The notes under the pieces are model-generated. The model searched no databases, was not told the DNA's origin, and saw nothing but the letters and a program-made list of their open reading frames with translations. The translations under genes and the position numbers were made by a program. Positions 31,675 through 57,256 of a DNA stretch of 64,000 nucleotides are shown here, piece by piece. Position 1 is the stretch's first letter. Every line of letters starts with the position of its first letter. Source of the DNA: Acidobacteriota bacterium (lineage in GTDB: Bacteria; Acidobacteriota; JAAYUB01); contig JAXGLX010000002.1 in NCBI GenBank assembly GCA_040768985.1, positions 4,378,971-4,442,970 on the forward strand, given 5' to 3'.

Positions 31675-32079
31675 CGCGCCGAAATGAACCACAGAGCACT
31701 TACCGTCTTGGACGGCGACTGACCACACCGAGAAGCCATCCTTATCTCATCAACCCGAAGCTATCCGCTGACCTCAGGGCATCGACTCATTCGGCGCGTC
31801 GTCATACTGACGTATGCGGGTTCCACTGCGCGATGACATAGGTCCTCATCGTGGCTTTGTCTAGCTGGAACGCGCTATTGAGCAGTAAAAGTGCTCTTTC
31901 AGGTCTCTTCCCTGTTGGATACTTTTTCTGTGCATTTCCCAGCTAGAGTCTTTAGTATGCACCCGGAAGACATTCGAGAGATGTGCAGGAAGAATACGGG
32001 AAACTGAACTTCCAATCCGAGACGCGATTGGGATCGAATCGATGATAACCGAGCGCTTAGCATGCTGTAATTCTGAGAG

Positions 32080-33279
32080 GTGGCGATGAGAATTGGAGAT
32101 TTACTGACTTCGATTGGCCCAGAGAAGTTTTTCGACCCTACAGATGAGCATCGGGCTTTGCGCAAGATGGTCCAACATCTAGCGGCATCAGAGTTGGAAC
32201 CTAATGCCGCCCGTGATGATGAATCCGAACAGTTTAACGAAAAATTGTTCCGCCGATTCGGCTCTGAGTTCAATCTGTTTGGACTGACTGTTCCCGCTGA
32301 TTTAGGAGGCGCCGGACTTGATCCCGTTGCGTCGGTACTCGTCACCGAGGAACTTTCAGTCGTCGACGCGGGTTTCGCCCTGTCATACATGGCCCACGAT
32401 GTCCTGTTTGTTCACAACTTTTTCCAGGGCGCCTCACCAGAGCAGATCAAACGGGTGTTGCCTCATGTCATCGATGGTTCCTGGATTTCCGGAATCGCCA
32501 TGACAGAGCCGGAAGCCGGAACCGATGTTCTGGGAATGCGCACGACGGCTCGACGAACTGCCAGCGGGTACATTCTAAACGGGGTGAAGCAGTTTATAAC
32601 CAATGCCGGACCGGGAGACATCTTCATCGTATATGCCAAAACCGGTTCAGATGACAAATCCATCAGCGCATTTCTTGTGGAGACAGATCGGAAAGGCGTA
32701 TCGATCGGAAAGCCGGAAAAGAAACTCGGCATGCGCACTTCGCCCACGGCGCAATTGGTATTCGATGAAGTTGTTGTTCCATCCGAGAACATAGTGGGAG
32801 CTGAAGGTCGCGGTTTAGTCCACATGATGCGCAATCTGGAAATCGAACGGGTGGTTCTGGCGGCCCAGAGCCTCGGAATCGCGCGGCGCTGCCTGGAGGT
32901 GGGCGCCACTTACGCCATTACACAGCGCAAACAGTTCGGTCAACCGCTCAGTCATTTTGGACAAATCCAGAAGATTCTTGCCGAAGGATTCGCAGACTTT
33001 CAGGCTGCGCGGGCTTTGGTTTATGCGGTGGCCCATCAGATCGATTTCAACGAGCGACGCAGCGCCGGTGCCGCTGCCGCTAAGCTGATGGCGGCGCAGA
33101 TGGCGGAGCGCGTGGGACGTGACATCATTCAGGTTCTGGGAGGATATGGCTACACACGGGAATATCCCGTGGAGCGCCTGTACCGTGACGCCATTCTCAT
33201 CAGCATCGGCGGCGGGACCAATGAAGCGATGGAGAAGAATCTGGTGAAGGATATGGCGCTCTGTTTTAAGGATCAGTGA
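32080..33279 (+). CDS. Acyl-CoA dehydrogenase (short/branched-chain type)
   Basis: GIAMTEPEAGTDV, QFITNAG and the C-terminal GGYGYTREYPVERLYRDA are typical ACAD motifs. Start is GTG 32080 or ATG 32086. Confidence 0.9.
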   Translation: MAMRIGDLLTSIGPEKFFDPTDEHRALRKMVQHLAASELEPNAARDDESEQFNEKLFRRFGSEFNLFGLTVPADLGGAGLDPVASVLVTEELSVVDAGFALSYMAHDVLFVHNFFQGASPEQIKRVLPHVIDGSWISGIAMTEPEAGTDVLGMRTTARRTASGYILNGVKQFITNAGPGDIFIVYAKTGSDDKSISAFLVETDRKGVSIGKPEKKLGMRTSPTAQLVFDEVVVPSENIVGAEGRGLVHMMRNLEIERVVLAAQSLGIARRCLEVGATYAITQRKQFGQPLSHFGQIQKILAEGFADFQAARALVYAVAHQIDFNERRSAGAAAAKLMAAQMAERVGRDIIQVLGGYGYTREYPVERLYRDAILISIGGGTNEAMEKNLVKDMALCFKDQ

Positions 33280-33309
33280 GCTTTTGATGAAGAAAATGGG
33301 GGTCCGACC

Positions 33310-34086
33310 ATGAACAATCCTAATGTCTTGATAGAAGTGAACGATCATGTGGCCGTGATGACCATCTCCCGGCCGGAGGCACTGAACGCGATAAATCAGG
33401 ATCTCTTGCTGCAAATGGAAGCAGCGATCGAGAATATCGAGGCAGACCGTCAGATTCGAGTGTTGGTGATCACCGGAGCCGGCCGGTCGTTTGTGGCGGG
33501 GGGTGATATCGCTGCGATGTCTAGAATGGATCCCTTTGAGGGACGAGCGTTCGTCCAGTTGGGACAACGGATTCTGGGCCGAATCGAAAACTCGCGGATG
33601 CCGGTTCTGGCAGCTGTGAACGGTTTTGCTCTGGGTGGCGGCTGCGAGTTGGCTCTGGCCTGCGACATCCGATATGCCTCGGACCGGGCGACGTTCGGCC
33701 AGCCCGAAGTCAACCTGGGGATCACACCAGGATTTGCCGGTTCACAACGCCTGGCCCGGATCTGCGGGCCGGGTGTGGCCAAAGATCTGGTGCTCACGGG
33801 CCGGGTTATTGACGCGCAACAGGCGCTGACAATCGGTTTGGTTGCGGCGGTATATCCGGCGGATGAATTATTGTCGAAAGTTATGGAGACAGCGGCTTTA
33901 GTTGCATCCCGATCTCCGGTGGCGGTTCAGATGGCCAAGTCGGCGATAAACAGAGGATATGATTCGACCTTTCAGACAGGAAGTCAGTACGAGGTCGAAG
34001 CATTCGCCCTCTGCATGTCGCACGCCGACTCGAAAGAGGGATTGAGCGCCTTTCTGGAGAAGCGGAAGCCGAAATGGAGTTCTTGA
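33310..34086 (+). CDS. Enoyl-CoA hydratase/isomerase (crotonase family)
   Basis: VLVITGAGRSFVAGGDI, AAVNGFALGGGCELALACD and FGQPEVNLGITPGFAGSQRL. Confidence 0.9.
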   Translation: MNNPNVLIEVNDHVAVMTISRPEALNAINQDLLLQMEAAIENIEADRQIRVLVITGAGRSFVAGGDIAAMSRMDPFEGRAFVQLGQRILGRIENSRMPVLAAVNGFALGGGCELALACDIRYASDRATFGQPEVNLGITPGFAGSQRLARICGPGVAKDLVLTGRVIDAQQALTIGLVAAVYPADELLSKVMETAALVASRSPVAVQMAKSAINRGYDSTFQTGSQYEVEAFALCMSHADSKEGLSAFLEKRKPKWSS

Positions 34087-34131
34087 ATTGCTTCCCATCG
34101 TTCAGTCTCGCACTCAAACAGGGAGGTTCCA

Positions 34132-34851
34132 ATGATCAGCTCTTATGCCGTGGTCAAAACAGACCGGGTGAGCCAGGATGCTGAAATACGTGAATTTGCC
34201 GTGATCGCTGAAGATGTGACCATCGGTCCTGGATGTATCATTCACCCGCATGTTGTAATCGAATCGGGTGTCGTGCTTGAGGAGGAGGTCGAGATTTTCT
34301 CCGGCGCCGTGATCGGTAAAGTGCCCAAGGGCGCGGGAGCGACGGCACGACAGCCTGAATTTAAACAAGGCGTTAAAATCGGCCGGTGCACTTCAATCGG
34401 ACCGCATGCGGTCATCTTTCAGGACGTCGTGATCGGTCAACACTGCCTGATCGGCGATGGCGCGTCGATTCGCGAGCAGTGCGCCATCGGCGACTATTCT
34501 CTGATCAGCCGCTATGTCACCATCAACTACAACACGACGGTCGGACATCACACCAAAATCATGGATCTGACCCACATCACCGGCAACATGAAAGTGGGGA
34601 ACAATGTGTTCGTCAGCATTCTAGTGTCGACCACCAACGACAATGCCATCGGCACCCAGGGCTACCGGGAAGAGGAGATCCGCGGCCCGTACATCCAAGA
34701 TGGTGCCATGATCGGTTGCGGGGCCAAACTGCTGCCCGGGGTGGTCGTCGGATCGGGATCCATCGTGGGTGCCGGTGCGGTCGTAACCAAAGATATCCCG
34801 AATGGAAAGCTGGCGATCGGCATGCCGGCTAGAGTGATACGTGATGTATGA
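34132..34851 (+). CDS. Left-handed beta-helix (hexapeptide repeat) acyltransferase, LpxD-like
   Basis: Repeated [LIV]-G-x4 hexapeptide pattern throughout: IGPGCIIHPHVVI, IGPHAVIFQDVVIGQHCLIGDGASI and VGSGSIVGAGAVV. Confidence 0.8.
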   Translation: MISSYAVVKTDRVSQDAEIREFAVIAEDVTIGPGCIIHPHVVIESGVVLEEEVEIFSGAVIGKVPKGAGATARQPEFKQGVKIGRCTSIGPHAVIFQDVVIGQHCLIGDGASIREQCAIGDYSLISRYVTINYNTTVGHHTKIMDLTHITGNMKVGNNVFVSILVSTTNDNAIGTQGYREEEIRGPYIQDGAMIGCGAKLLPGVVVGSGSIVGAGAVVTKDIPNGKLAIGMPARVIRDV

Positions 34852-34880
34852 GAAGATTTCACATACCGGGTGATTAAACG

Positions 34881-35318
34881 ATGTCGTTAAATTTATGCAA
34901 AATCATTGCGTTACCCAAGAACACCGATCCCCGCGGTAACCTAACCTTCATTGAAGGCGGGGTTCATGTGCCATTTCTTATTCAGCGGGTTTACTATTTG
35001 TACGATGTGCCTGGAGGAGCAGAGCGGGGGGGGCATGCCCACAAAGAACTCCACCAGTTAATAATCGCAATGTCCGGCAGTTTTGATGTGGTTCTGGACG
35101 ATGGATCGGAGAAGAAACGTTTCCACCTCAATCGTTCATATTTCGGTCTCTATGTTTGTCCGATGATATGGCGTGAGTTGGATAACTTTTCTTCTGGATC
35201 GGTATGCATGGTGCTGGCCTCGAATCGTTATAATGAAAACGATTATTACCGCGAATACGCAAATTTTCTAAATGTCATCCACGACAGGAGCAATTCAAGT
35301 AGCTGTCATGGATCATAG
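34881..35318 (+). CDS. Sugar 3,4-ketoisomerase (FdtA/WxcM-like cupin)
   Basis: [42 protein letters not shown] is the FdtA/QdtA signature. Confidence 0.85.
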
Positions 35319-35325
35319 GCAAGTT

Positions 35326-36432
35326 ATGAGAATTCCGTTCCTTGAGCTGCTGCCAGCATATCGTGAGTTGCAGTCGGAATTGGATGCGGCCTTCCATCGG
35401 GTCATGGCCTCGGGACAATACTTACTAGGGCCGGAGCTGGAGTCTTTTGAAGCGGAATTTGCCGCCTATTGCGGTACTCGGGAATGTGTGGGAGTGGGTA
35501 GTGGATTGGATGCCCTCCACCTTATTCTGCGTGCCTGCGACATCGGGCCGGGCGATGAGGTGGTCGTCCCTGCCCACACGTTCATTGCCACCTGGCTGGC
35601 GGTGACGTTCACCGGGGCACGGCCGGTACCGGTGGAGCCGGATCCGAGAACATTCAACCTTGACCCAGAGCGACTCGATGTGGCGATCACACCGAAGACC
35701 AAAGCCGTCATTCCAGTTCATTTGTATGGCCATCCGGCGGATATGGATGCCATCACAGCCACTGCCCGCCGTCACGGCATACTAGTAATTGAAGATGCCG
35801 CTCAAGCACACGGTGCCTCATACCGTGGCAGGCGATGCGGAGGACTCGGAGACGCTGCGGGCTTCAGTTTCTACCCCGCTAAAAACCTTGGGGCTTTCGC
35901 TGATGCAGGCGCCGTGACTACAAATTCTGGCAAGCTGGCAGACAAGATCCGAACGCTGCGGAATTATGGTTCGCGGAAAAAATATTACAATGAATGCATC
36001 GGGTACAACTCACGAATGGACGAGTTGCAGGCCGCCATGCTGCGGGTAAAACTTCGATATCTCAATGAATGGAATGAGCGGCATCGGACTATTGCCCGAG
36101 AATATAGCAAACTACTGGCAGAAACGCCCGACCTTCTACTCCCTCAGGTTGCCGAATGGGCTGAGCCGGTATGGCACCAGTTTGTGATCCGCCACCCCAA
36201 GCGAGATGAATTGAAAGATCAGCTTGCCGCACAAGGAATCGACACACTGATCCATTATCCTGTACCCCCGCACCTTTCGAAAGCTTATGCATTCATGGGA
36301 TTTGACAGCGGTGCGTTTCCTGTGACTGAGGATATCGTACGAACAGTTTTGAGCATGCCGATTGGCCCACATCTCACGACGGAACAATGTCACATTGTGA
36401 CCAATGCTGTCAGATCAAGAGGATTCATTTAA
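35326..36432 (+). CDS. DegT/DnrJ/EryC1/StrS-family sugar aminotransferase (FdtB/QdtB-like)
   Basis: [33 protein letters not shown], and [16 protein letters not shown] (PLP lysine region). An alternative ATG lies at 35308. Confidence 0.9.
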
Positions 36433-36465: not shown

Positions 36466-38091
36466 GTGGATAAATCACTTAATACTGCAAAAGTTTTCAA
36501 AGAGTCCGAAGGACAGCGGGCAGCGGAAGAGAATCAAACAGAAAATGCTGCCGCAGCGCCCGATGCCTCCGATGTGCTAGACGATTCTTGCTCTGCTTCA
36601 GGTTACCGCGAGGTCCTTAAGGCGACGTCGATCACCGGCGTTTCATCGCTTGTCCAAATACTCTTGCGTATGGTGAAATCCAAGGTGATCGCCGTTGCCG
36701 TGGGGCCGACGGGCATAGGGATGTTCGGAGTATTGACCTCCGCAACCGGACTCATCAGCACCTTAGTCGGTTTGGGAATTAACAGCAGCGGTGTCCGGCA
36801 GATAGCGTCCGCCGACGGGGATGAGGACCATACGGCCCGGGTAGTCCGCACATTGCGGCGCACTTCGTCGGTGCTGGGACTTTTGGGAACAATTGTTGTG
36901 CTGATCTTTGCAAAGCCGATCGCCCGACTCACGACCGGCTCTGAGGAATATGCCGGCTATTTGATGCTGTTGGCACCTTTGATTTTTTTCACAACGGTCA
37001 ACGGGGGGCAGATAGCGCTGCTACGAGGGCTTCGACTCATCTCGACCTTGGCGCGACTCAGCATCATCGGGGCGGTTGTGGGGACTGGACTGGCTGTGCC
37101 GTTCGTGCTCATCTTGGGACTGGACGGCATCGCACCGGCCATGCTGGTGACTGCTGCTGTTACATTGGGGGCATCTTGGTTTTACGCAAGGCAGGTCAAG
37201 ATACCCGATGTTACTCTGACCCCCGGCCAGTTTAGAGACGAGGTGAGCAGACTGCTTGGGTTGGGAGTGGTCTTTCTCTTGACGGGTGTCCAAACAAATG
37301 CGGTTCAGTTCACAATCAGAACAGTACTGCTATATCTAACCGACCTCGTGACCGTCGGCCAGTTCCTTGCAGCGACCATGCTGTCTCATGTGTACGTCGG
37401 GTTTGTCCTTCAGGCGATGGGTATGGACTACCTTCCCCGACTAACCCGCAACCATCACGACGCGAGATCTTGCAACCGGCTGGTCAACGAGCAGACTGAG
37501 GTTGCGTTGCTCGTGGCCGGCCCAGGTATTGTGGCCTTGGCAGTTTTTGCACCCTTGCTGATCCCGGTTTTTTACAGTGCTCAATTTTCAGCCGCCATCG
37601 AGGTGTTTCGATGGCAGTGTCTGGGAGTCTTGATTAAAGTAGCGAGTTGGCCGATTGGATTCGTGCTCATCGCTAAGGGAATGCGCCGGACGTACCTTGT
37701 CACTGAGACGGTATCGAATGTCTTGTATCTGGCTATTTTCTTCATCTTTGCTAAAACATTTGGTTTGATCGGGGCGGCGCTTGCATATGCGGCTCTTTAC
37801 CTATTCTATCTAGCCATGGTGTTGATTCTGGTTCACAAGGTCACTGGATTCTGGTGGTCAGCCTGCGCACAGACTGTACTTGTCACTACTGTTGCATCAT
37901 ATGTCAGTACGCTGGCGATAAATGCGTGGGTACCCAGTCCGTGGGGCGCGATTGTCGGTTTCTGCTTAGTTATTGCCACTTGCCTATGGGCTTACCATCA
38001 GCTATGCCGACGTCTTGACTTGCCGCTTGCACGATTCGTCGTCCGGAAACTCAAGCAGATCACCCAGCGTACACCATTCCGGAGAGGGTGA
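36466..38091 (+). CDS. wzx: Polysaccharide flippase (Wzx-like, MOP superfamily)
   Basis: 541 aa, polytopic. N-terminal LLRMVKSKVIAVAVGPTGIGMFG is typical of O-antigen translocases. Confidence 0.8.
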   Translation: MDKSLNTAKVFKESEGQRAAEENQTENAAAAPDASDVLDDSCSASGYREVLKATSITGVSSLVQILLRMVKSKVIAVAVGPTGIGMFGVLTSATGLISTLVGLGINSSGVRQIASADGDEDHTARVVRTLRRTSSVLGLLGTIVVLIFAKPIARLTTGSEEYAGYLMLLAPLIFFTTVNGGQIALLRGLRLISTLARLSIIGAVVGTGLAVPFVLILGLDGIAPAMLVTAAVTLGASWFYARQVKIPDVTLTPGQFRDEVSRLLGLGVVFLLTGVQTNAVQFTIRTVLLYLTDLVTVGQFLAATMLSHVYVGFVLQAMGMDYLPRLTRNHHDARSCNRLVNEQTEVALLVAGPGIVALAVFAPLLIPVFYSAQFSAAIEVFRWQCLGVLIKVASWPIGFVLIAKGMRRTYLVTETVSNVLYLAIFFIFAKTFGLIGAALAYAALYLFYLAMVLILVHKVTGFWWSACAQTVLVTTVASYVSTLAINAWVPSPWGAIVGFCLVIATCLWAYHQLCRRLDLPLARFVVRKLKQITQRTPFRRG

Positions 38092-38095
38092 ACCG

Positions 38096-39115
38096 GTGGG
38101 AGCTCAGAAAAATGATCGCCCGCTGGTCACGTTTGCACTTTTCGCATACAACCAGGAGCAGTACATTCGGGAAGCAGTCCAGGGCGCATTTTCACAGACG
38201 TACTCGCCTCTGGAAATCATCCTTTCCGATGACCACTCCGCTGATCGAACTTTCGATATCATATTGGAGATGGCCGCCGACTACGTCGGTCCCCACCAGG
38301 TCCGCGTGCGGCGCAACGAAGAGAACTTGGGAATAGCCGGCCACGTGAACATGGTCATGGCTCAAGCGGCGGGTGAGTTGGTGGTGATGGCTGCGGGTGA
38401 CGACGTGTCGATTCCTTCAAGGACGGAGCGTTTGTTGTCCCTCTGGCTGAAGGAAGAGAGAAAACCGGACGGACTCTTCTCGGGTTATACGGCTGTATCG
38501 GCGGGTAGGTGCAAAACCATCAAACCCACTGGGAATTACTCAATCGATTATTGCTTCCATCACACGGCACTCAATCTACTAGGTGCCACCGCTGCCTGGA
38601 CCAGGCGGCTCTGGGAAACATGGGGGCCTCTTCCTGCGGATGGCTTGTGCGAAGATCGGAACCTTTCTTTCAGGGCTCTACTGGGGGGCGGTCTCGCGTA
38701 CACCCCCGAAGCAATGGTGCGGTACCGCTCATCGGTCAAACCGGCGCTTTCTGGAGATGCCCAATGGCTCACTAGAACACTCTGGAGATGGAAGCGCGAG
38801 CTTCACTTCTACGATGACTATGCCAAAGATCTTCATGCGGCAGGGAAAATGGAGCAACAGGCCGTTGATACGGATAAATTGCTCAACCTGCTCTCTCAAC
38901 GTAAAGCGCTCCTAGCCTGCGACTGCCAACTTCTTGCCGGTGGCAGGAAAGATATACTGCGTTATTGTCTCAGATTGATTTTCAATAAGGCCTGGCTCGA
39001 TGCCAGTGTAAGAAGCCGAGTGTATATTGTATTGACTCTCGTCCGTTGGTGCGTGCTGCGCACAAAGGATGCCCCCACTCTCGACACTCGGAATCATCGT
39101 GCACTGCGTAGATAA
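38096..39115 (+). CDS. Family 2 glycosyltransferase
   Basis: GTG start after GGAGAGGG. LVTFALFAYNQEQYIREAVQGAFSQTYSPLEIILSDDHSAD (GT-A with a DxD region), then GDDVS. Confidence 0.85.
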   Translation: MGAQKNDRPLVTFALFAYNQEQYIREAVQGAFSQTYSPLEIILSDDHSADRTFDIILEMAADYVGPHQVRVRRNEENLGIAGHVNMVMAQAAGELVVMAAGDDVSIPSRTERLLSLWLKEERKPDGLFSGYTAVSAGRCKTIKPTGNYSIDYCFHHTALNLLGATAAWTRRLWETWGPLPADGLCEDRNLSFRALLGGGLAYTPEAMVRYRSSVKPALSGDAQWLTRTLWRWKRELHFYDDYAKDLHAAGKMEQQAVDTDKLLNLLSQRKALLACDCQLLAGGRKDILRYCLRLIFNKAWLDASVRSRVYIVLTLVRWCVLRTKDAPTLDTRNHRALRR

Positions 39116-39307
39116 GTTACTAGTGTGGGAGCTACCAATGTTGCCCTCCTCATTTGACCATCAAGAGGCAGGTCATTTTTTAGGATGGAGCAAAGTTGCG
39201 TGTTCACACGGAACTGACATTTTGCTATCAGATATACAACGCGTTACTCGGGCGAACAAGGGCCTCCGAATATTTGAGTGTACAAATTCGACATCAGCGG
39301 CATGTGA

Positions 39308-40729
39308 ATGAACCGAACGTTCGTATTTTGGTTCTATTGGGGGGCGGAGATCAGGGTTTTTGTCTTCAGTGGGCTTATCGATTACCTTTTAGATCATGGA
39401 GAAGTTGTTGTCTGCGCGAGGTTCCTCAATCAAGACCTGATGTCATCGGCCGATCCTAGAGTCAGATGGATCCAATCCACACTAACTAAGGGGTCCCCCT
39501 GGCAATCACGTTTGCACTCTTTTGCTAACCGTGTCCATTTATTGTGGTTACGCAATCGTTTCGAGGGTATGGCTGTTCTTGATCGAGCAGCAGCGGCGGG
39601 TGATACAGAACCACAGAATACGCTACGTGAGGTTGGCGCAAAAGCTTGTGCACGCCGGCCACTGGTTAATATTGTTAATAAACTTGCATCGAGAGCGCTC
39701 GACACAACCGTGGAAGATCTCAACTGGTTGTCAACTATGGACCTATCGAAAAGAACGATGCTCTTGGTATCCAGCGATTATCTGAGCGTTGCAGGTGTAC
39801 GTACCATATGGGCAGCTAAAAAGCGAAAGCAGACAACAGTTTTCTATCCTTCAAACTGGAGAGATGTTTACAAGGGAGCCCGCTTATCCCCTCCCTTCAA
39901 CGACTGGATCATGTGGAACGCAAAAATGGTGGATGCAGCACGAAGGAATAATCCATGGTTAGGCGACGCTAGATTCAAAGAAGCAGGTTCAACACAGTTC
40001 GATTCGCATTTTCGCTCTGATTGGCTTGTTCCGCGTGACAATTTCTGCAAGATACTGGGCACCGACCCCCAAAGACCATTAATATGCTACTCGGCCGTGA
40101 GTGATTCAGCGTTTAAGGGGGAAGCTGAAATTGTGGAGCAAATTATTGATGCTCTTCAAAAATCTGAAATTGGGCGCTCGGTTCAAGTTGTGGTTAGACT
40201 CAATCCTGCGGGTAGCGACCCCGGTTATCGTGACCTTTGTCTAAAATACCCACAGACATGTTTTATACAATCACCTGAATGGTGGATAGAACGTCCACCA
40301 GATGGCTCACCGATTTGGCGATCGAACACTCCTGCCGATGCTCGGATGATGGCTAATCTTATCGAACATTGCTGTGCCAATGTTGGGCTTCCATCAACTA
40401 TGATGTTGGACTTTGCGGTGAAAGGTCGGCCTTCGGTCTGCATCGGATTTGACCCGAGTGAATGCAAAGGGGGAAATACTCGTGTGAAAAATTTCCTTGA
40501 TCAGGAGTTCATCCGACCTGCGTTGGAACAGAATGTGTGGCCTGTAGCCAATTCGGCGACCGATGTGGCTGAACTACTTGTCAAGTGTATAAAAGGGACT
40601 ATTACGGAAAATAAAGCTGCCTACGATTTCGTGACAGCGACAGTGGGCTCATGTGATGGAAAAGTTCACCAGCGGTTGGCACAGGATATTATCTCAATCT
40701 GCGATCGAGTGCGCCAAACAAGGCGGTGA
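39308..40729 (+). CDS. Hypothetical protein (473 aa), possibly a GT-B-like glycosyl- or phospho-transferase
   Basis: Long ORF with island-like codon usage inside the glycosyltransferase block. I recognise no motif with confidence. Confidence 0.5.
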   Translation: MNRTFVFWFYWGAEIRVFVFSGLIDYLLDHGEVVVCARFLNQDLMSSADPRVRWIQSTLTKGSPWQSRLHSFANRVHLLWLRNRFEGMAVLDRAAAAGDTEPQNTLREVGAKACARRPLVNIVNKLASRALDTTVEDLNWLSTMDLSKRTMLLVSSDYLSVAGVRTIWAAKKRKQTTVFYPSNWRDVYKGARLSPPFNDWIMWNAKMVDAARRNNPWLGDARFKEAGSTQFDSHFRSDWLVPRDNFCKILGTDPQRPLICYSAVSDSAFKGEAEIVEQIIDALQKSEIGRSVQVVVRLNPAGSDPGYRDLCLKYPQTCFIQSPEWWIERPPDGSPIWRSNTPADARMMANLIEHCCANVGLPSTMMLDFAVKGRPSVCIGFDPSECKGGNTRVKNFLDQEFIRPALEQNVWPVANSATDVAELLVKCIKGTITENKAAYDFVTATVGSCDGKVHQRLAQDIISICDRVRQTRR

Positions 40730-40783
40730 GAAACTTTGAATGTGGTGCGATTGATAACCAACTTGAATTGGGAGGACGGATAA

Positions 40784-41962
40784 GTGCGCATACAGTTTGT
40801 CTCTCATGAGGCTGTGGGTATTGAAAAGGCGATGGACCACGGTGGCGTGGGCATCTCACAGCGTGTCGTTGCCGAGGGTCTGGCAAGGAGAGGACATCAT
40901 GTGGAACTCCTGCTGCCGTCCGACAAGGAGTGGAACAATGAATATGCTGGTGTCAAACTCCGTGGATGGAAATCTGACAGGCGACGATTTGTGGGGATAT
41001 TCCGGAACATGAAACGCCAGAAGCAGTTGGCGGCCGATTTTGCCAAGGGCGACAGTGACGCATTCACTATTATTCCTGATGTCGGTTGTGTAAGTTGGCC
41101 ATATCCCCTAGCTTCGATAAAGGTCATTAAGTTCACATGCACACATCTATTACAGAAGCACGAAGCTCAACATGATCGACCCAATTATCTAAGAGCAATC
41201 GCGGAAAAACTCATGGTACCCCGCGCCAACGCCTTTTTCTCTATCAGCGCGCGAACTGCAGATGTCTCTGCCCATCTTTTTAAAATTGCGAGAGATCAGA
41301 TTGTAGTGATTCCGAATGCCGTTGACACAGAAATGTTCCGGCCGCCGGAGAATGAATCCCGCGATCCCAATCTGCTCCTTTATACGGGGACAGTGTGTGA
41401 GAAGAAGGGGGCTTGGGAGACAGTAGCGGCGCTCCGGATTCTTGAAGAGCGCTATCCTAATCTCAAACTTCTGATGATCGGACGGAATGGAGTGGATTAC
41501 AACAATAGAGGCGACTTCATCGGACGAATAAAGACGGCTTTTCCTGATACATGTCACTCCCGTGTCGAGTTCAGAGGTCATGTTAAGAACGATGAACTTC
41601 CATCTATCTATCAGAAGGCTGCGGTAGTTGTGCTGCCATCGTATTACGAGTCTTTCGGGCGCACGACTATTGAAGCGATGGCGTGTGGGGCAGCGGTGGT
41701 CCGAAGTGATTCACCACCAGCATCAGAGATTATATCAGATGGTATCGATGGTCTTCTCTGCCGGACAAAAGATGCTGAAGATCTTGCTAAGAAGATCGAT
41801 ACCCTCCTTTGTTCGCCAGAACTCAGACAGAGTTTAGGTGCCAAAGCACGAAAGACAGCAGTGACCCGCTTCTCTGTGGGTGTTGTCGTGGAAATGACCG
41901 AAGCATTTCTGAAAAACCTGCTTGACGAAGAGAGAAGGTGTAACGACTTTCACTTAAGTTGA
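40784..41962 (+). CDS. Family 4 (GT-B) glycosyltransferase
   Basis: VVLPSYYESFGRTTIEAMACGAAVVRSDSPPASEIISDGIDGLL (EX7E motif). GTG start after GGAGGA. Confidence 0.85.
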   Translation: MRIQFVSHEAVGIEKAMDHGGVGISQRVVAEGLARRGHHVELLLPSDKEWNNEYAGVKLRGWKSDRRRFVGIFRNMKRQKQLAADFAKGDSDAFTIIPDVGCVSWPYPLASIKVIKFTCTHLLQKHEAQHDRPNYLRAIAEKLMVPRANAFFSISARTADVSAHLFKIARDQIVVIPNAVDTEMFRPPENESRDPNLLLYTGTVCEKKGAWETVAALRILEERYPNLKLLMIGRNGVDYNNRGDFIGRIKTAFPDTCHSRVEFRGHVKNDELPSIYQKAAVVVLPSYYESFGRTTIEAMACGAAVVRSDSPPASEIISDGIDGLLCRTKDAEDLAKKIDTLLCSPELRQSLGAKARKTAVTRFSVGVVVEMTEAFLKNLLDEERRCNDFHLS

Positions 41963-41974
41963 TTAGAGGATAAG

Positions 41975-42976
41975 TTGCCCAACCAAAATACTATAGTTTC
42001 GGGATCTCGGGATTTCGAGGCAAATCTAGTACTTGCTGTTAATAAAGTTGTTCACGATTTAGAGGGTTTTTCATACCACATCAAACACGAAGCAATGTTC
42101 GCTTTGGAAAGTCCGCGATGGCAGGCTGTCACAAAGCGTTTCATTGTTGATTGTCTCCAGCAAGTAGTAGTATTGGACATTGGCTCAGGAACCGGATTTG
42201 TGCCTCAGATCATTGCACCACAACTGAAAATCGGTGATCTGTGCATCTGTTCAGATGTCTCCGCCACAATGCTCCAAGTATGTAGAGATAGGTTATCTGA
42301 AACGGAAGTAAATTGCGGACTAAAATTCCTTCTTCTCGACGGGGAACGGATCAGCCAAAATTCAGAATATTTCACCCATGTTACAATGAACTCGGTTCTT
42401 CATCACCTAGCAAATATCGATTCCTTACTCATCGAAGTAGACCGGGTACTTTGTCCTGGCGGCAGGGTTTTCATTGGACATGAACCCAATGCTGCTTTCT
42501 ACAGAAGCCGTTTTCTTCGTTGGGTAACACGTATTGTCCGTGTATTTTTAGATCCTCTCCACGCCCCGAAGAATATCTGCTCCTTTTATAAATTTCGGAC
42601 AAATAACTCGATGAAAACAAACCGAATTGAGGCAGAGAGTGCATTCGAGAGCGCATTTGTGGAAGAAGTCAACCAAAGTCTCCTGAGAGAGGGTATCATT
42701 CAGAAACCACTATCGAAAAAAGAGATTGGCAACATAGTTGACTTGCGTTCGGCAGGAGGTTCAGGCGTCACTCAGGGAATAGATATCGAGAAAGAAATAA
42801 TGAGTAAACTGAACGAATACCAGGTCGAGTTCTTTCAGACTTACAATCATCTTGGCAAAGTAAGCAACAAAAATTTTGTAACAAGAGCAATTGATCACAC
42901 ACTTAGATTGCTATTTCCACACACAGGCGGAACCTTCTTCGTGGTTCTGCGAAAATCAATGGCAAAGCGGGGATGA
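41975..42976 (+). CDS. Class I SAM-dependent methyltransferase
   Basis: VLDIGSGTGF motif I and LCPGGRVFIGHEPN. TTG start after AGAGGA. Confidence 0.8.
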   Translation: MPNQNTIVSGSRDFEANLVLAVNKVVHDLEGFSYHIKHEAMFALESPRWQAVTKRFIVDCLQQVVVLDIGSGTGFVPQIIAPQLKIGDLCICSDVSATMLQVCRDRLSETEVNCGLKFLLLDGERISQNSEYFTHVTMNSVLHHLANIDSLLIEVDRVLCPGGRVFIGHEPNAAFYRSRFLRWVTRIVRVFLDPLHAPKNICSFYKFRTNNSMKTNRIEAESAFESAFVEEVNQSLLREGIIQKPLSKKEIGNIVDLRSAGGSGVTQGIDIEKEIMSKLNEYQVEFFQTYNHLGKVSNKNFVTRAIDHTLRLLFPHTGGTFFVVLRKSMAKRG

Positions 42977-43218
42977 ATTTAATTTGAGATTCGCTACGTG
43001 TTAACGACAATATCGAGATCAGCTTTTCGATCGGAATGAAAAGATATGAAGAGAGATTCGAGTTTGAACAAATTGAGATTTTTCAATGCGCCAAATGATG
43101 TCTCTTCTTTGAAGTAGCGAGACAAGATGAACAAGATGGAGTGATTTGAATAATCGACTTCATTCTGTAATTAATGTGAACCTGATCGGATAATTTTCGC
43201 TGAGATAATCGTCTCCTT

Positions 43219-44403
43219 TTGAATAGTAGCAAAGCATCTAACGAGGACAAGACACAAGTAGCCGATCGGCCGCGTGTGTTATTCATTGTAGGCACAATGT
43301 CTCTTGGGGGTGCCGAAAATCTGGTTTTCGAGTGGTGTCGCGCTTTATACAACGAGAAGGTTTCCTGCGCGATTGTCTGTCTGATTCGACGGGAAGGTCA
43401 CTACCTCTCGTTAGTTGAGGAAATGGGTATTCCGGTATTTGAGATTTCACAGGCAAAATCATCCAAGATAAGTTTCACCTGGAAGCTTGGTGCCCTGATT
43501 GCATCTTATGGTGCATCGATCGTCCATAGCCAGTGTAGCTGGTCATTAACCCAACAAGCTTTAGCGTCTAAACTTGGTCGAGCCAAGGCGTTTCTGCTTA
43601 CAATGCACAGTGCTTTTGCACCGGGAAGCAGAACAGTTCGTTTGAAAAGAAAAATTGCAAATTTAATAGCGGCTCCCTTCATCAACAAGATCATCGGTGT
43701 ATCCGATAATGTGAGTATACATGCCGCAGAGTGGACCGGAAAAGACTCTCGAAACATTGTGACTATCCGAAATGGGATAGATCTTACAGCTTTTGACACA
43801 TGTCGCAGCCAACGACATTCGATGAGAGCGGAATTTGGGGTTGCCGATGACGTCCCCCTGTTGATCAATGTGGCAAATCTGACGGCACATAAAGACCATG
43901 CAACGCTTTTTACGGCTTTCAAAATCTTGTTGCAACGGTGGCCTTTGGCGCACCTACTTATTGTAGGAGATGGTCAGCTCCGCGAAACTTTAGCGCAATT
44001 GGCCTTGGACCTCAGAATTTCTAAGTCTTTAACATTTGTTGGTCGCAGAACAGATGTGCCTGCCATCCTGGGTGCGGGTGATGTCTTTGTTCTTTCTTCG
44101 ATCCGGGAAGGCTTTGGCCTTGCGCTGGTAGAAGCTGGTGCAGCCTCAATTCCGGTGGTTGCAACTCGCGTCGGTGGTATTCCAGAAGTGGTGCGTCATG
44201 GAGAAACAGGACTTCTTGTCCCGCCTGGAGATCCGCCCAAACTTGCAGAATCAATCGAGATTATTCTTAGTAAAGAGGACTTTGGTCGGGAAATGGGTTC
44301 CGCCGGGCGTAGGTTTGTTACCGACCGCTTTGGAATCGATCGTTGTTTTTCAGAGTATCTCGACCTCTACAAAGGGGTGCTTGGTGCAGAATGGGAAGCA
44401 TAG
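43219..44403 (+). CDS. Family 4 (GT-B) glycosyltransferase
   Basis: MSLGGAENLV N-terminal region and VFVLSSIREGFGLALVEAGAASIPVVATRVGGIPEVV (EX7E). The start codon is uncertain: TTG 43219 or an internal GTG near 43273. Confidence 0.85.
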   Translation: MNSSKASNEDKTQVADRPRVLFIVGTMSLGGAENLVFEWCRALYNEKVSCAIVCLIRREGHYLSLVEEMGIPVFEISQAKSSKISFTWKLGALIASYGASIVHSQCSWSLTQQALASKLGRAKAFLLTMHSAFAPGSRTVRLKRKIANLIAAPFINKIIGVSDNVSIHAAEWTGKDSRNIVTIRNGIDLTAFDTCRSQRHSMRAEFGVADDVPLLINVANLTAHKDHATLFTAFKILLQRWPLAHLLIVGDGQLRETLAQLALDLRISKSLTFVGRRTDVPAILGAGDVFVLSSIREGFGLALVEAGAASIPVVATRVGGIPEVVRHGETGLLVPPGDPPKLAESIEIILSKEDFGREMGSAGRRFVTDRFGIDRCFSEYLDLYKGVLGAEWEA

Positions 44404-44500
44404 GATTATAAAAGAAAAGTACTTTTCTGAAGGTGACACCCGGATTCACAGAGACCATTTTTTCGAGCCACTACAACAAGTCAAGATGTGATTTTGCATA

Positions 44501-45865
44501 ATGACTAATTACTATCCAACGTTGACCCAATCATATAAATCGGTAGGAGGCTACACTCAGAATGTGGGTGTTGCGGTACCAACAGCATCTGTGTCTAAAT
44601 GGGAATTGGTTCTCCTCGGGGCTTGGATTGCATCATTTACGGTGGGGCTTGATGCTTTTTTTGATTTAAAACTGTTTGACATCATAGGTGCCATTACAAT
44701 TTGGCGCTACAGATCAATTGTTTTATGCGGATTCAAGGAAAAGTCAAAAACAGGTGTTACGCTCCGCTGGGTATCGATCATGTTCTCAATTGGAGTCTTA
44801 ATAGCAATACTCAGGGTTGGCGAACCTATATTTGTTGCAATCGTCTTGTTACGGTTAGCAAGACTATTTAGTTATTTTTCAGCTTTACTGATCTTTCGTG
44901 CACTTCCTTTTAATGCAAGACAATTGCGGATTGTCATTTGGATATTTTGCGGCTCATGTTTGGCCCAAGCAATTCTAATTCTCCTGCAGGAACAAGGACT
45001 GGTGCCGCTTTTCTGGTCAATTGCAGAAATGGCAATCTATGGCCGGATCTATTCAACTGGGACATTGGGCCTCAACCACCTTAACCAAGTCTTGTTCATG
45101 GTCGTCGGCCTCTGTGCGACGCTTTCATTGGTTTTCACTGGACGAGCTAGAAGATCTCTTCGTCTTGTCATCGTCGGCGTTGGATGCCCCATGATGTTAT
45201 TTGCTATGCTAGTTGGCGAAGCGAGAAGCGGTCTAGTAGCACTTGCCGTCATGAGTTCGATTATAGCGATTCGAATGAAAAAACTCATATTGATTGTGTT
45301 AATCATACCGCTATCTATTGTAATCGATGCGTCACTGGGCTTAGACATACAAGCGCGTATCTCCAATATGTGGGAACAAAAATTCACGCAGAGAATGGTA
45401 CCCGGTCTCCCAGGAGCCGAAACAATCGAGGCATTAGACGCTCCGCGCCCTCTGATTTGGAGAAAGTCTGTGAATAGGCTTGTGGAAGATCCCATAATTT
45501 TGCTTGTTGGTGCGGGTTTTCAAAATTATAAGGGACTTGGGGCTGGAGGTGTAGCTGCAGGCCACAATCTCTACCTTCATGTGTTAGTTGAGCTTGGAAT
45601 AATGGGCTTAGCATCATTCTTGGCCTTTCTAATGGTATTGTACCGATCACTTAAAAGTGGAAAACATGACTCAGCCGATTCATCTAGGATCAAAATGTTT
45701 GGGCTTACTCTGTTCATCACATTGCTCGTTCTTGGTCTGTTTAATGAAAGTTTGTACCCTCAACGCGCCATCATGGGGTTTATGGGATTTGCTTTAGCGT
45801 ACATTGCAGTTGCGGGACACCGAGGGTGGACTATCCAGCCTTATCAGAGGGTTGGGGTTCATTAG
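44501..45865 (+). CDS. O-antigen polymerase/ligase-family membrane protein (Wzy-like)
   Basis: 454 aa, polytopic. GAGFQNYKGLGAGGVAAGHNLYLHVLVELGIMGL resembles the Wzy_C/O-antigen ligase signature. Confidence 0.7.
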   Translation: MTNYYPTLTQSYKSVGGYTQNVGVAVPTASVSKWELVLLGAWIASFTVGLDAFFDLKLFDIIGAITIWRYRSIVLCGFKEKSKTGVTLRWVSIMFSIGVLIAILRVGEPIFVAIVLLRLARLFSYFSALLIFRALPFNARQLRIVIWIFCGSCLAQAILILLQEQGLVPLFWSIAEMAIYGRIYSTGTLGLNHLNQVLFMVVGLCATLSLVFTGRARRSLRLVIVGVGCPMMLFAMLVGEARSGLVALAVMSSIIAIRMKKLILIVLIIPLSIVIDASLGLDIQARISNMWEQKFTQRMVPGLPGAETIEALDAPRPLIWRKSVNRLVEDPIILLVGAGFQNYKGLGAGGVAAGHNLYLHVLVELGIMGLASFLAFLMVLYRSLKSGKHDSADSSRIKMFGLTLFITLLVLGLFNESLYPQRAIMGFMGFALAYIAVAGHRGWTIQPYQRVGVH

Positions 45866-45915
45866 CTGCCTATCACAGTTGACTGCTGGTTTATTCATCC
45901 AATAATCAGAACAGC

Positions 45916-47061
45916 ATGAAGCTCCTTATCGTCACTGAATGTGGGCACTACCGACGTGCAGAGCGAGTGCTGGCGCCCAGGCACTTTGTGAGAGAGATCT
46001 CTCTATGGGCCAGGATGTTCGATTCGGTGGTTCTGATTACGCGGTTTCCGTCTTGGCAGGAGCCGGCGGATTTGGTGGAATATGGTTGTGAGAATATCAC
46101 TTTCCGTGTCGGCAATGGTGCCTTCGGAACGAACTTGATTGAAGTGTTACGGTCACTCGCCCGTTCAACGGTGGCAGTTTGCAAGATTGTAAGCGAGTAC
46201 ACTCGCGCTGATGCCGTGCACATTCGATGCCCCTCTCGGCATGGGTTGCTGGCGCTCTTGGTGTGGCTTCTGGCACCCAAGCCTTGCTACGTGAAATGGG
46301 CTGGTAATTGGGATTTTCAGGGAGGCGTGCCATGGAGTCTCCGGTTGCAGCGGTGGCTGGTGAGGCGGATGAAAGGCGCTGTAGTAGCCACAGTTTATGG
46401 GAGATTGGACGACGATCCGCCGCACATCCACGAGACGCTCACAACAAGCCTCAACGAGGAAGAAATTAAAAGGTGCTTAGAGCTTGACCGGAAGCATTCT
46501 CCGAACGAACTCCGGCTCCTTTGGGTGGGCAGATCCTCGGCCAACAAGAACACACGTGTCCTGCTGGATGTTGTAGAGCGAGTATTTCGCGCATTTCCAC
46601 TAGTCACTTTGCATCTTGTGGGGGACGGTCCTGATTTGATGGATTTGAAGGCGGAAGCTGAAGCCAGGGGAATTGGTCAAAGGATGGTGTTTCACGGTTC
46701 TCAACCCTGGCAACGATTGTGTGAACTGTACGCGAGTGCCAGGCTCCTGCTGTTGCCCTCGTTGTCGGAGGGATTCCCCAAAGTCGTGATAGAGGCCGCA
46801 CTTTTTGGCACTCCATCTATTGTGTTCGCCTGTGGTGCGCTTCCGGACATCGTCAAGAACAAGGGGGTTGCAGTTGAACCAATAGGGGATACCCAGGAAT
46901 ACGTGCAAGCAGTTTTGGATCTTTTGGCAGACGAAGCACGATGGGAGGATTTATCTGTCAATGCTCGCAACTGGGCCTCACAGATCTCTATTGAGTCTGT
47001 GGTGGATGGGTATCGGAGGATGATTGAAACTTCTTGGAATGTAAAGCTCCTTCAAGGCTAG
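45916..47061 (+). CDS. Family 4 (GT-B) glycosyltransferase
   Basis: LLLLPSLSEGFPKVVIEAALFGTPSIVFACGALPDIV (EX7E region). Confidence 0.8.
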   Translation: MKLLIVTECGHYRRAERVLAPRHFVREISLWARMFDSVVLITRFPSWQEPADLVEYGCENITFRVGNGAFGTNLIEVLRSLARSTVAVCKIVSEYTRADAVHIRCPSRHGLLALLVWLLAPKPCYVKWAGNWDFQGGVPWSLRLQRWLVRRMKGAVVATVYGRLDDDPPHIHETLTTSLNEEEIKRCLELDRKHSPNELRLLWVGRSSANKNTRVLLDVVERVFRAFPLVTLHLVGDGPDLMDLKAEAEARGIGQRMVFHGSQPWQRLCELYASARLLLLPSLSEGFPKVVIEAALFGTPSIVFACGALPDIVKNKGVAVEPIGDTQEYVQAVLDLLADEARWEDLSVNARNWASQISIESVVDGYRRMIETSWNVKLLQG

Positions 47062-47062
47062 G

Positions 47063-48238
47063 TTGAAAGCAGTTATTCTGCCTGAAATGAGCGATATCCG
47101 ACGAACCGAAAACCCGCTAACCGCTTCCTCCAGAGTTGTGATCGTGGCGGGACAGCTCGACATTGGAGGAGCGGAGCGCGAATTGATCACCTTTCTGGAA
47201 GCCGCACAAAGTTGCAGATTTGAATTCCGGGTGATTTGTCTTGCTCCCGGAGGAGAGTTTCGTGCCGATGTCGAACAATTTTCTGGCAGCGCAGTTCTCA
47301 CACCACCGACGGCGAGTAAGCTCGGCCGATTACGCTGGATGTGGCGGACGCTGCGTTCGCTCAATCCGGCTTTGGTTCATTGCTGGAATCTGTTTCCAAT
47401 TTTCTATATCCCACCGTCCCACTGGCGTAGCTATCCACTGATTGGTTTTCTTCAATGCATCCCTTCACAATGGCCGGCCGGCATGATTGCAAAGAAAATT
47501 CTTCGCCGACTTGCTCGCGTTCCCGAAGGTTTGGTGTCCAATTCCTCTGCTGCTCTGGATGAACTTGCACTGCTCGGGATTCCGACCGGCCCGTCTGTTG
47601 TGGTCAGAAATGGGGTGCGGAGTAGTTTTTTCAATGGCAAAGCGGGAGAGGAGTTCAATCGGATCTCGGGTCAGGATACTGTACTGATTGGCTTGGGAAG
47701 ACTGATCAGCCGCAAGCGGGCAGACTGGATGATACGTGCCCTTGCGATTCTTCGCAAAGAACGGCTACCTCTTTCGCTCTGGTTGGTTGGCGATGGCCCT
47801 GAACGGGTGAGTCTGGCACATCTTGCAGAAGAGTTGGGTGTCGAATCCAAAGTTGTGTTTTGGGGCAACCGAAATGATGTGCCCGACCTGCTTTCAGCAG
47901 CAGACATCATGGTTCACTGCGCCTGGGCCGAGGGACTGCCGAATGCGGTGCAGGAAGCAATGGCTGCTGGACTGCCCATCGTAGCATCGAGGACAAGTGG
48001 AATTCCGGAAATCGTTGAAGATTCTGTTGAAGGGATATTATTCGATCCTGACGACTTCAATGGATTTGTTGGTTCACTCCGCAAACTGGTGAGTGATGCT
48101 GATCTCCAGGTACGCATGGGTAGTGCTGCGCGTGAAAAGGCTCAACGGGACTTTTCGCCTGAGACGATGGCGATTATGATGATCGAGTTCTATGAAACCA
48201 TCCTCGATTCTTGGTCTGGCAAAAGGGGCATTAGGTGA
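47063..48238 (+). CDS. Family 4 (GT-B) glycosyltransferase
   Basis: QLDIGGAEREL N-terminus and IMVHCAWAEGLPNAVQEAMAAGLPIVASRTSGIPEIVED. Start is TTG 47063 or ATG 47087. Confidence 0.85.
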   Translation: MKAVILPEMSDIRRTENPLTASSRVVIVAGQLDIGGAERELITFLEAAQSCRFEFRVICLAPGGEFRADVEQFSGSAVLTPPTASKLGRLRWMWRTLRSLNPALVHCWNLFPIFYIPPSHWRSYPLIGFLQCIPSQWPAGMIAKKILRRLARVPEGLVSNSSAALDELALLGIPTGPSVVVRNGVRSSFFNGKAGEEFNRISGQDTVLIGLGRLISRKRADWMIRALAILRKERLPLSLWLVGDGPERVSLAHLAEELGVESKVVFWGNRNDVPDLLSAADIMVHCAWAEGLPNAVQEAMAAGLPIVASRTSGIPEIVEDSVEGILFDPDDFNGFVGSLRKLVSDADLQVRMGSAAREKAQRDFSPETMAIMMIEFYETILDSWSGKRGIR

Positions 48239-50769: not shown

Positions 50770-50778
50770 AATAATGGT

Positions 50779-51882: not shown

Positions 51883-51926
51883 GCGAGTAGCATGCGATCG
51901 GCAAATCAGTCATCAGAATTCCAGCG

Positions 51927-53138: not shown

Positions 53139-53144
53139 CACTCC

Positions 53145-53777
53145 GTGGGCTTTTATCATCGCGTCGGTAAGCGTGTTCTGGATCTGATGATCGTGCTCGC
53201 TTTACTTCCTTTCTGGTTGCTGTTTTGGATCATTGCGGCATCATTGGTCCGATTGCAATTGGGCGTACCGGTTCATTTCCGGCAGACGCGACCGGGTCGA
53301 TTTGGCGAGCCGTTTGTGTTGTTGAAACTGCGCACGATGACCAATGAGACCAGAAATGACGGCCAGCTTCTTCCGGACGAGCAACGATTGACCAGGTTGG
53401 GAGTATTTCTCCGTACGATCAGTCTCGATGAGTTCCCCACGCTGTGGAATGTTCTAAAGGGAAACATGAGTCTGGTTGGACCGCGACCTCTGTTGATGCA
53501 ATATCTCCCCCTCTACTCGTCTGAACAAGCGCGACGCCATGAAGTCAAACCGGGTATCACCGGCTGGGCGCAGGTGAATGGGCGAAACGCACTGTCATGG
53601 GAAGAGAAATTCCGGCTGGACGTCTGGTATGTGGATCACCTTTCTTTCTGGTTGGATGTCCGAATACTCTGGCGAACATTGATTCAAGTGATCCGGCGTC
53701 AAGGAATCAGCGCCGACGGCCATGCCACGATGCCTCCCTTTACAGGTACTCAGGAGGATACCCGTGAAACCACGTGA
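53145..53777 (+). CDS. Undecaprenyl-phosphate sugar phosphotransferase (small PglC/WbaP-C-type initiating transferase)
   Basis: KRVLDLMIVL, the reentrant helix region, PFVLLKLRTM, DEFPTLWNVLKGNMSLVGPRP and PGITGWAQVNGRN. Confidence 0.9.
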   Translation: MGFYHRVGKRVLDLMIVLALLPFWLLFWIIAASLVRLQLGVPVHFRQTRPGRFGEPFVLLKLRTMTNETRNDGQLLPDEQRLTRLGVFLRTISLDEFPTLWNVLKGNMSLVGPRPLLMQYLPLYSSEQARRHEVKPGITGWAQVNGRNALSWEEKFRLDVWYVDHLSFWLDVRILWRTLIQVIRRQGISADGHATMPPFTGTQEDTRETT

Positions 53778-54384: not shown

Positions 54385-54439
54385 GCATCTTCATTCGATC
54401 GCTTTGTTGGGAACACCAATTATCTAACTATAAAACGAA

Positions 54440-55354: not shown

Positions 55355-55424
55355 GTTGAGTATTGATTACTGTTCATCAATGTCTCATTGAAAATTGCAC
55401 GAACAAAATCTGAAATTGTCGCGG

Positions 55425-56110: not shown

Positions 56111-56130
56111 GATGGGAGAGATGAACGAGG

Positions 56131-57255
<1,125 letters not shown>

Positions 57256-57256
57256 C

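Follow-up and report, generated by a model that had tools for sequence, protein, structure and literature searches.

We examined a five-gene cassette in a 64,000-nt stretch of the genome of an Acidobacteriota bacterium (GTDB lineage Bacteria; Acidobacteriota; JAAYUB01), taken from contig JAXGLX010000002.1 of assembly GCA_040768985.1, positions 4,378,971 to 4,442,970 of the forward strand. We refer to this whole stretch as the window and give coordinates within it. The cassette encodes an acyl-coenzyme A (acyl-CoA) dehydrogenase (ACAD), a crotonase, a left-handed beta-helix (LbH) acyltransferase, a sugar 3,4-ketoisomerase (FdtA) and an aminotransferase (FdtB) (Table 1). A preliminary description had read these five open reading frames (ORFs) as a pathway to an N-(3-hydroxyacyl) 3-amino-3,6-dideoxyhexose, and all five are borne out, lying together on the plus strand between 32080 and 36432. 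They are packed like an operon: the gaps measure 30 nt between ACAD and crotonase genes, 45 nt between crotonase and LbH genes and 29 nt between LbH and FdtA genes, the FdtA ORF, as called, runs into that of FdtB, and a simple scan found no terminator-like or same-strand promoter-like site between the five genes. Members of the FdtB cluster are 368 and 374 aa long, suggesting a later start for FdtB than the one called; similarly, the true ACAD start is probably the ATG at 32086, because its relatives are 397 aa long.

The cassette makes up the first five genes of a compositional island of about 24 kb, running from about 31.7 to 56.1 kb. GC content at third codon positions (GC3) is 0.41-0.66 within the island and 0.88-0.95 in the flanking sugar genes; the five cassette genes have values of 0.49-0.66, and the ACAD and crotonase genes are, like the others, of island rather than host type. 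We conclude that this is a surface-polysaccharide island acquired horizontally.

Table 1. Genes of the cassette, followed by the adjoining parts of the island, with window coordinates and supporting matches.
Feature	Position	Strand	Evidence
Isovaleryl-CoA dehydrogenase (IVD)-type acyl-CoA dehydrogenase	32080..33279	+	Pfam: three ACAD domains, 1.6e-36, 5.5e-26, 8.3e-26
Short-chain enoyl-CoA hydratase (crotonase, Crt-like)	33310..34086	+	Pfam ECH_1 (PF00378) 6.7e-71
QdtC/FdtD-like LbH N-acyltransferase of dTDP-3-amino sugar (predicted)	34132..34851	+	Pfam Hexapep 5.7e-34
FdtA/QdtA-type dTDP-4-keto-6-deoxyglucose 3,4-ketoisomerase	34881..35318	+	PF05523 2.6e-57, 192.7 bits vs cut-off 23
Pyridoxal phosphate-dependent aminotransferase, dTDP-3-keto-6-deoxyhexose type (FdtB/QdtB-like)	35272..36432	+	Pfam DegT_DnrJ_EryC1 (PF01041) 1e-119
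Non-coding leader, 405 nt	31675..32079	+	Left edge of low-GC island, directly after the stop of an intein-bearing sugar dehydrogenase
Rest of low-GC polysaccharide island	36466..55354	+	Pfam, NCBIfam and PDB matches; GC3 0.41-0.59

The last two genes of the cassette provide the route to dTDP-3-amino-3,6-dideoxyhexose that had been proposed for them, as Pfam and solved-structure matches agree. The ketoisomerase matches FdtA (2pa7, 2.7e-33) and QdtA (4zu7, 4.2e-29), a gap too small to tell a galacto (FdtA) from a gluco (QdtA) product, and retains in GGHAHKEL, aligned to RGFHAHKKL of 2pa7, the HxH motif that we take to be catalytic; it is the sole FdtA in the genome. The best solved matches of the aminotransferase are 2oga (3.3e-138), presumably DesV, a 3-aminotransferase, and QdtB (3frk, 7.9e-126), both ahead of 4-aminotransferases. 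The pathway had been said to fall if the genome encoded no dTDP-glucose 4,6-dehydratase; that enzyme, RmlB, is present elsewhere in the genome (464 bits against a cut-off of 365), and an RmlA-like gene lies about 1.4 kb away. Two further occurrences of these families were seen. A second DegT aminotransferase, 46% identical to FdtB, adjoins an epimerase/dehydratase-family gene on a contig of the same genome, at about 2.22 Mb (locus L002, 2536-3630), and another genome of the phylum has two tandem FdtA-family genes, 54% and 62% identical to FdtA, beside one FdtB (locus L096, 8085-8821).

The acyltransferase turned out to be less unusual than first described, when it was labelled LpxD-like and thought to replace the usual small acetyltransferase. 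Its solved matches are FdtD (4mzu, 1.4e-17), QdtC (3fs8, 1.7e-16, over residues 19-236) and WlbB (6.4e-14), all far closer than LpxD (4e75, 1.4e-8); LpxD and LpxA matches fall at about 1e-8 to 1e-9, and the weakness of the LpxD match beside that to FdtD rules out an LpxD-like lipid A enzyme. At E 1e-20 or better, 1830 homologs were found. Many of these are about 240 aa long with 55-71% identity, among them an Aneurinibacillus protein annotated at source as an N-acetyltransferase; in a tree the LbH protein of the cassette pairs with a 71% relative in a small clade nested inside the QdtC/FdtD-like family. A scan of genome contigs with LbH returned a single locus (L004), in which a 58% relative lies in a plain RmlB-RmlA-LbH-FdtA-FdtB-GT2 arrangement with neither an ACAD nor a crotonase gene. 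Longer relatives (about 400 aa) extend roughly 160 aa further at the C terminus, and for two of them (P0066 and P0074) an FdtA domain (PF05523) is recorded. Judged by the near-full-length QdtC match, the 55-71% family, the plain locus and the FdtA fusions, the enzyme replaces nothing: it is an ordinary member of the QdtC/FdtD-like family, which normally partners FdtA and FdtB in this same gene order and is sometimes fused to FdtA. Against the family consensus it differs at the conserved columns G14S, P57S and C123S; two more differences, Y97Q and T105C, are common to few relatives.

What sets the cassette apart is the pair of genes upstream of this module. The best solved matches of the ACAD are the isovaleryl-CoA dehydrogenases 4o5m (1.1e-83) and 4kto (7.5e-78). 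In alignment, its LEIERVVL and IGGGT segments correspond to LDYERVVL and IGAGT in both solved IVDs, whereas the non-IVD ACADs 8i4p and 2dvl have LDHTRV or LDSGRV, with no glutamate on that helix, together with IYEGT. The ACAD thus has its glutamate on the LExER helix (helix G), and a glycine where the YEGT of medium-chain and short-chain acyl-CoA dehydrogenases (MCAD and SCAD) places a glutamate, which is the IVD layout. Many proteins share 57-63% identity with it, and where their sources give a name, it is mostly IVD. The genome encodes no other IVD-like ACAD, its next best being 42% and 38% identical, and this fits a dedicated role. From its sequence, isovaleryl-CoA would be its likeliest substrate. 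The gene sits in a glycan operon and not in a leucine-catabolic (liu) context, a difference that touches the physiological role of the enzyme and not its chemistry.

The crotonase directly downstream has clostridial Crt (5z7r, 3.7e-77) as its best solved match, and matches the NCBIfam short-chain-enoyl-CoA hydratase model at 6.7e-97, under the cut-off of that model. Two glutamates, in GGGCELAL and FGQPEVNLG, are both kept; we take these, from the rat enzyme, to be the catalytic residues of the hydratase.

We suggest that the five enzymes act in one pathway. RmlA and RmlB, encoded outside the cassette, would supply dTDP-4-keto-6-deoxyglucose; FdtA would shift its keto group to C-3, and the aminotransferase would then yield dTDP-3-amino-3,6-dideoxyhexose, in the galacto or gluco configuration. 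The substrate of the IVD-type ACAD would be a short acyl-CoA with a branched chain, isovaleryl-CoA being the likeliest, which the enzyme would oxidise to the 2-enoyl-CoA (3-methylcrotonyl-CoA), with electrons passing to the EtfAB of the genome, of which there is a single pair, encoded near a different ACAD. The crotonase would hydrate the enoyl-CoA to a 3-hydroxyacyl-CoA, most likely 3-hydroxy-3-methylbutyryl-CoA, and the LbH enzyme would move the hydroxyacyl group onto the C-3 amino group. The predicted product, dTDP-3-(3-hydroxy-3-methylbutanamido)-3,6-dideoxyhexose, would carry the acyl group of the Bacillus sugar anthrose on N-3 rather than N-4, and would be used by the remainder of the island, including its Wzx and Wzy, to build a Wzx/Wzy-dependent surface polysaccharide.

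We put the chance that the cassette product is a 3-hydroxyacylated 3-amino-3,6-dideoxyhexose at about one in two. If it is, then the IVD-type active site of the ACAD makes a branched C5 chain, in our view, roughly twice as likely as (S)-3-hydroxybutanoyl. Gene identities, intact catalytic motifs, operon-like packing, island composition and the precursor genes were observed; the use of the ACAD-crotonase product by LbH and the identity of the chain are what we infer. A 3-hydroxyacyl-CoA donor, as first proposed, remains reasonable, its genes being intact, of island type and operon-linked, but 3-hydroxybutanoyl, the lead example then given, is disfavoured relative to 3-hydroxyisovaleryl by the type of the ACAD. 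More specifically, a self-contained branched acyl-CoA route, through a dedicated IVD and crotonase, may decorate the 3-amino-3,6-dideoxyhexose of this uncultured soil-type bacterium to give an undescribed 3-N-acyl analogue of the anthrose core; this fuller version is tentative, and we would sooner bet against it than for it.

The ACAD-crotonase pair is a rare two-gene add-on upstream of a conserved LbH-FdtA-FdtB module, since the order of the latter three is the same in the plain L004 locus and the long, roughly 400-aa LbH relatives agree with it. None of 80 metagenome loci encoding ACAD relatives encoded LbH, FdtA or FdtB; these loci span 49-61% identity, and the scan did not return the relatives at 68-97%. 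Searches for a close relative of the ACAD came up empty in 400 sampled genomes of the phylum and in the nine other genomes of the class (ten in all), as did a search for FdtA in seven genomes of the same family. Among 17 FdtA loci fetched from the phylum sample, a count that leaves out one further genome (G024), none had an ACAD or crotonase gene within about 8 kb. Close relatives are known from metagenome contigs, and here the longest contigs have the same sizes (7473, 29363 and 69144 nt) for relatives of the ACAD (97% and 89% identical), the crotonase (95-96%), FdtB and Wzx (clusters at 90% identity or above). Because of these shared sizes, the cassette is probably kept together in close relatives, recurring only in near-identical metagenome contigs. 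More distant relatives of the ACAD (72%) and crotonase (65%) both report a Logan contig of 25,313 nt, which suggests that the pair travels together.

The cassette works like the anthrose operon but is no member of it. That operon is antABCD of Bacillus anthracis and B. cereus (PMC10050317), and 3-hydroxy-3-methylbutyryl-CoA is named as the N-acyl donor of anthrose biosynthesis in a passage of PMC8141488 citing Kubiak and Holden 2012. There, as we propose here, an in-locus crotonase makes 3-hydroxy-3-methylbutyryl-CoA and an acyltransferase adds it to a dTDP-amino-6-deoxyhexose derived from dTDP-4-keto-6-deoxyglucose; anthrose is in addition 2-O-methylated, and the island here holds a methyltransferase gene. 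Four differences separate the two systems. The amino group is at C-3 here, through FdtA and a 3-aminotransferase, and at C-4 there; the acyltransferase here is QdtC/FdtD-like, and the 60 best PDB matches listed for it include no chain named AntD; the locus here has an IVD-type ACAD as well, so that it would make its own enoyl-CoA; and the glycan here is a Wzx/Wzy polysaccharide, in contrast to a spore glycoprotein there. In the work of Dong (2008/2010) and of Kubiak and Holden (2012), AntA is reportedly the crotonase, AntC the aminotransferase and AntD the N-acyltransferase.

The rest of the cassette resembles known systems for 3-amino sugars: FdtA-FdtB-FdtC of Aneurinibacillus thermoaerophilus, QdtA-QdtB-QdtC of Thermoanaerobacterium and the bifunctional FdtD/WxcM. 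The isomerase, aminotransferase and LbH enzyme are homologous to theirs, the precursor is the same, and LbH, FdtA and FdtB are ordered as in relatives. These Fdt and Qdt systems use acetyl-CoA and have no donor-synthesis genes, whereas here an ACAD and a crotonase gene lie directly upstream. Closer to the predicted product are the systems of E. coli O103, Salmonella O55, Hafnia alvei and Acinetobacter, where FdhC and QdhC are the named 3-hydroxybutanoyl transferases for Fuc3N and Qui3N (3-amino-3,6-dideoxygalactose and 3-amino-3,6-dideoxyglucose), and where N-(3-hydroxyacyl) Fuc3N or Qui3N is likewise made from the product of RmlA plus FdtAB or QdtAB; unlike the present cassette, those clusters come without described donor-synthesis genes, and the acyl group is (R)-3-hydroxybutanoyl (PMC4869667). 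The same source agrees with the remark in the preliminary description that N-(3-hydroxybutanoyl) amino sugars are known in O-antigens. The remark beside it, that in-locus donor synthesis of this kind was not recognisably characterised, overstated the novelty, as the anthrose donor (named in the passage of PMC8141488) and FdhC and QdhC (PMC4869667) were already known.

Two E. coli loci were seen with other genes between the 3,4-ketoisomerase and the aminotransferase. NZ_CM149864.1 (L089, 5520-7591), whose serotype is unlabelled but whose locus has the same layout, has a GNAT-family acetyltransferase in this slot, which is not a confirmed FdhC; the O2 strain NZ_CP109921.1 (L090, 4607-6570) has a short, broken LbH gene, likewise not a confirmed FdhC, that is annotated as two pseudogene fragments. 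The GNAT protein there and the LbH protein here indicate that different folds fill the acyltransferase role.

Glycan loci with enzymes for their own N-acyl donors include the flagellin-glycan vio island of Pseudomonas syringae, with a ketosynthase and a reductase, and the tetronate genes of Vibrio cholerae O1. These use fatty-acid-synthase-like or other chemistry, and not the first two steps of beta-oxidation that we propose here. The cassette is probably a standard Fdt/Qdt module with a rare, self-supplied donor branch of beta-oxidation type, and not a new kind of system.

Several points weigh against a 3-hydroxyacylated, and in particular a branched, product. Adjacency alone ties the product of the ACAD and crotonase to the LbH enzyme, and neither the 80 IVD loci nor the 17 FdtA loci yielded an independent, more distant example whose context could be read. 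The LbH enzyme shows no clear pocket change, its residue differences being only candidates for a change of specificity, and QdtC and FdtD, the solved members of its family, are acetyl-CoA-dependent. IVD-family enzymes take straight C4-C5 acyl-CoAs too, and a Crt-like crotonase says nothing against a straight C4 chain. Finally, sampled neighbours of the IVD relatives of about 60% identity included no carboxylase genes and no recognisable leucine-catabolic clusters; without liu-type neighbours in the sample, the naming of these relatives as IVDs rests on source annotation.

If the LbH enzyme is instead an ordinary acetyl-CoA-dependent N-acetyltransferase, then the sugar would be plain N-acetylated Fuc3N or Qui3N (Fuc3NAc or Qui3NAc), and the ACAD and crotonase would serve another acylation or be a catabolic passenger. 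The nesting of LbH within an ordinary family, the 58% relative in a locus without donor genes and the failure to find the pair with Fdt genes independently in either set of loci are all as this would predict. The island also offers other uses for the pair, since it holds a second N-acyltransferase, the PerB/PglD-like LbH at 53722-54384, as well as a PaaK-like CoA ligase; an O-acylation could equally be served. The arrangement of the genes speaks differently. The ACAD and crotonase genes lie immediately upstream of LbH, with gaps of 30 and 45 nt and no terminator-like site, and close relatives seem to keep them together with FdtB and Wzx, whereas the other LbH gene is 20 kb off and the second aminotransferase and PglF-like dehydratase genes downstream of it are at host GC. 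Nor is the pair a good catabolic unit: it covers two steps only, and neither a 3-hydroxyacyl-CoA dehydrogenase nor a thiolase gene adjoins it. We consider an N-acetylated product unlikely, though a serious contender.

A straight C4 chain would retain the proposed pathway and change its substrate: butyryl-CoA would give crotonyl-CoA and then (S)-3-hydroxybutyryl-CoA, yielding N-(3-hydroxybutanoyl) Fuc3N or Qui3N as in E. coli O103, Hafnia and Acinetobacter. Among PDB matches to the ACAD, butyryl-CoA dehydrogenases (about 1e-72) trail the IVDs only moderately, the crotonase is closest to clostridial Crt and to the short-chain-enoyl-CoA hydratase model, and both sugars are established O-antigen constituents (PMC4869667). 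The catalytic residues of the ACAD are, however, in the IVD layout and not that of YEGT, and its nearest named relatives are IVDs. Stereochemistry is a second obstacle. Crotonases form the (S)-isomer of 3-hydroxyacyl-CoA. In the Fuc3N and Qui3N derivatives that are known, the acyl group is the (R)-isomer (PMC4869667), and the C4 version is in our judgement quite improbable.

The same pair might work reductively, in the manner of clostridial butyrate synthesis, taking a 3-hydroxyacyl-CoA through the enoyl-CoA to the saturated acyl-CoA, so that the amide would receive a short acyl chain that is either saturated or enoyl. The crotonase is Crt-like, and the top NCBIfam match of the ACAD is an acryloyl-CoA reductase model, though far under its cut-off (281 against 640 bits). 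Against this, the only EtfAB pair in the genome is near a different ACAD, no gene for a source of 3-hydroxyacyl-CoA was found in the cassette, and we know of no IVD-type enzymes that act as reductases; we regard reduction as very improbable. Least credible of all is that the ACAD-fold protein works as a flavin-dependent N-oxygenase of amino sugars, like the nitrososynthases KijD3, ORF36 and DnmZ: nitrososynthases do share the ACAD fold and take dTDP-3-amino sugars as substrates, and the gene adjoins a 3-amino-sugar pathway, but the protein is about 60% identical to source-named IVDs, the crotonase that directly follows would have no role in N-oxygenation, and we rejected this role because the IVD catalytic glutamate is kept and the PDB matches at E 1e-40 or better are named as acyl-CoA, prolyl-ACP or related dehydrogenases, with no nitrososynthase among them.

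Were the branched 3-hydroxyacyl pathway correct, it would be, to our knowledge, the first case of an acyl-CoA dehydrogenase, here an IVD, recruited to glycan decoration. Two enzymes of beta-oxidation would be added to the means by which glycan loci are known to provide their own N-acyl donors, and an enzyme of QdtC/FdtC type would have been retuned from an acetyl to a C5 hydroxyacyl donor, making the cassette a natural test case for change of acyl-donor specificity in this family. A further prediction would be that a new epitope resembling anthrose exists outside Bacillus. Because the 3-hydroxy-3-methylbutanamido group is what anthrose antibodies and diagnostics depend on, another natural source of this group bears on their cross-reactivity. 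The practical gain is modest and amounts to a small set of enzymes for the in vitro synthesis of N-hydroxyacyl deoxyamino sugars.

Beyond the cassette, the genes of the island specify Wzx, a GT2 glycosyltransferase, a 473-aa protein and six GT4 glycosyltransferases, the latter on either side of a methyltransferase and a Wzy-like protein, followed by a PaaK-like ligase, WecB, a PglC-like transferase, a PerB/PglD-like LbH protein and an NTP_transf_5 protein. At the left edge, the leader has a GC content of 0.51 compared with 0.67 in the gene upstream, and a simple scan found no same-strand sigma-70-like site in it. That upstream gene, just outside the island (29851-31674), encodes a 607-aa protein of the UDP-glucose/GDP-mannose dehydrogenase family, with a match to an intein-splicing domain between its central and C-terminal domains.

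Some of these genes could touch the predicted sugar. The PaaK/CapK-like adenylate-forming CoA ligase (49201-50769; PDB 4r1l, 3.8e-28; NCBIfam DVU_1553-family ligase, 1.9e-40, under the model cut-off) is encoded 13 kb downstream of the cassette and might convert a short free acid, for example isovalerate, into the CoA ester that feeds the ACAD. The class I S-adenosylmethionine-dependent methyltransferase gene lies amid the glycosyltransferases (41975-42976), and O-methylation of the predicted sugar by its product is conceivable by analogy with anthrose. For the 473-aa protein (39308-40729) no Pfam family was found; it has a weak match to a BFO_1060 glycosyltransferase domain (1.1e-5).

A second amino-sugar module spans the right edge of the island (53145-59758). 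It begins with the PglC-like transferase, the PerB/PglD-like LbH protein (4ea7, 1.4e-45) and the NTP_transf_5 protein, all encoded at island GC, and continues with a DegT aminotransferase and a PglF-like dehydratase, both encoded at host GC. The module looks like one for a bacillosamine-type initiating sugar.

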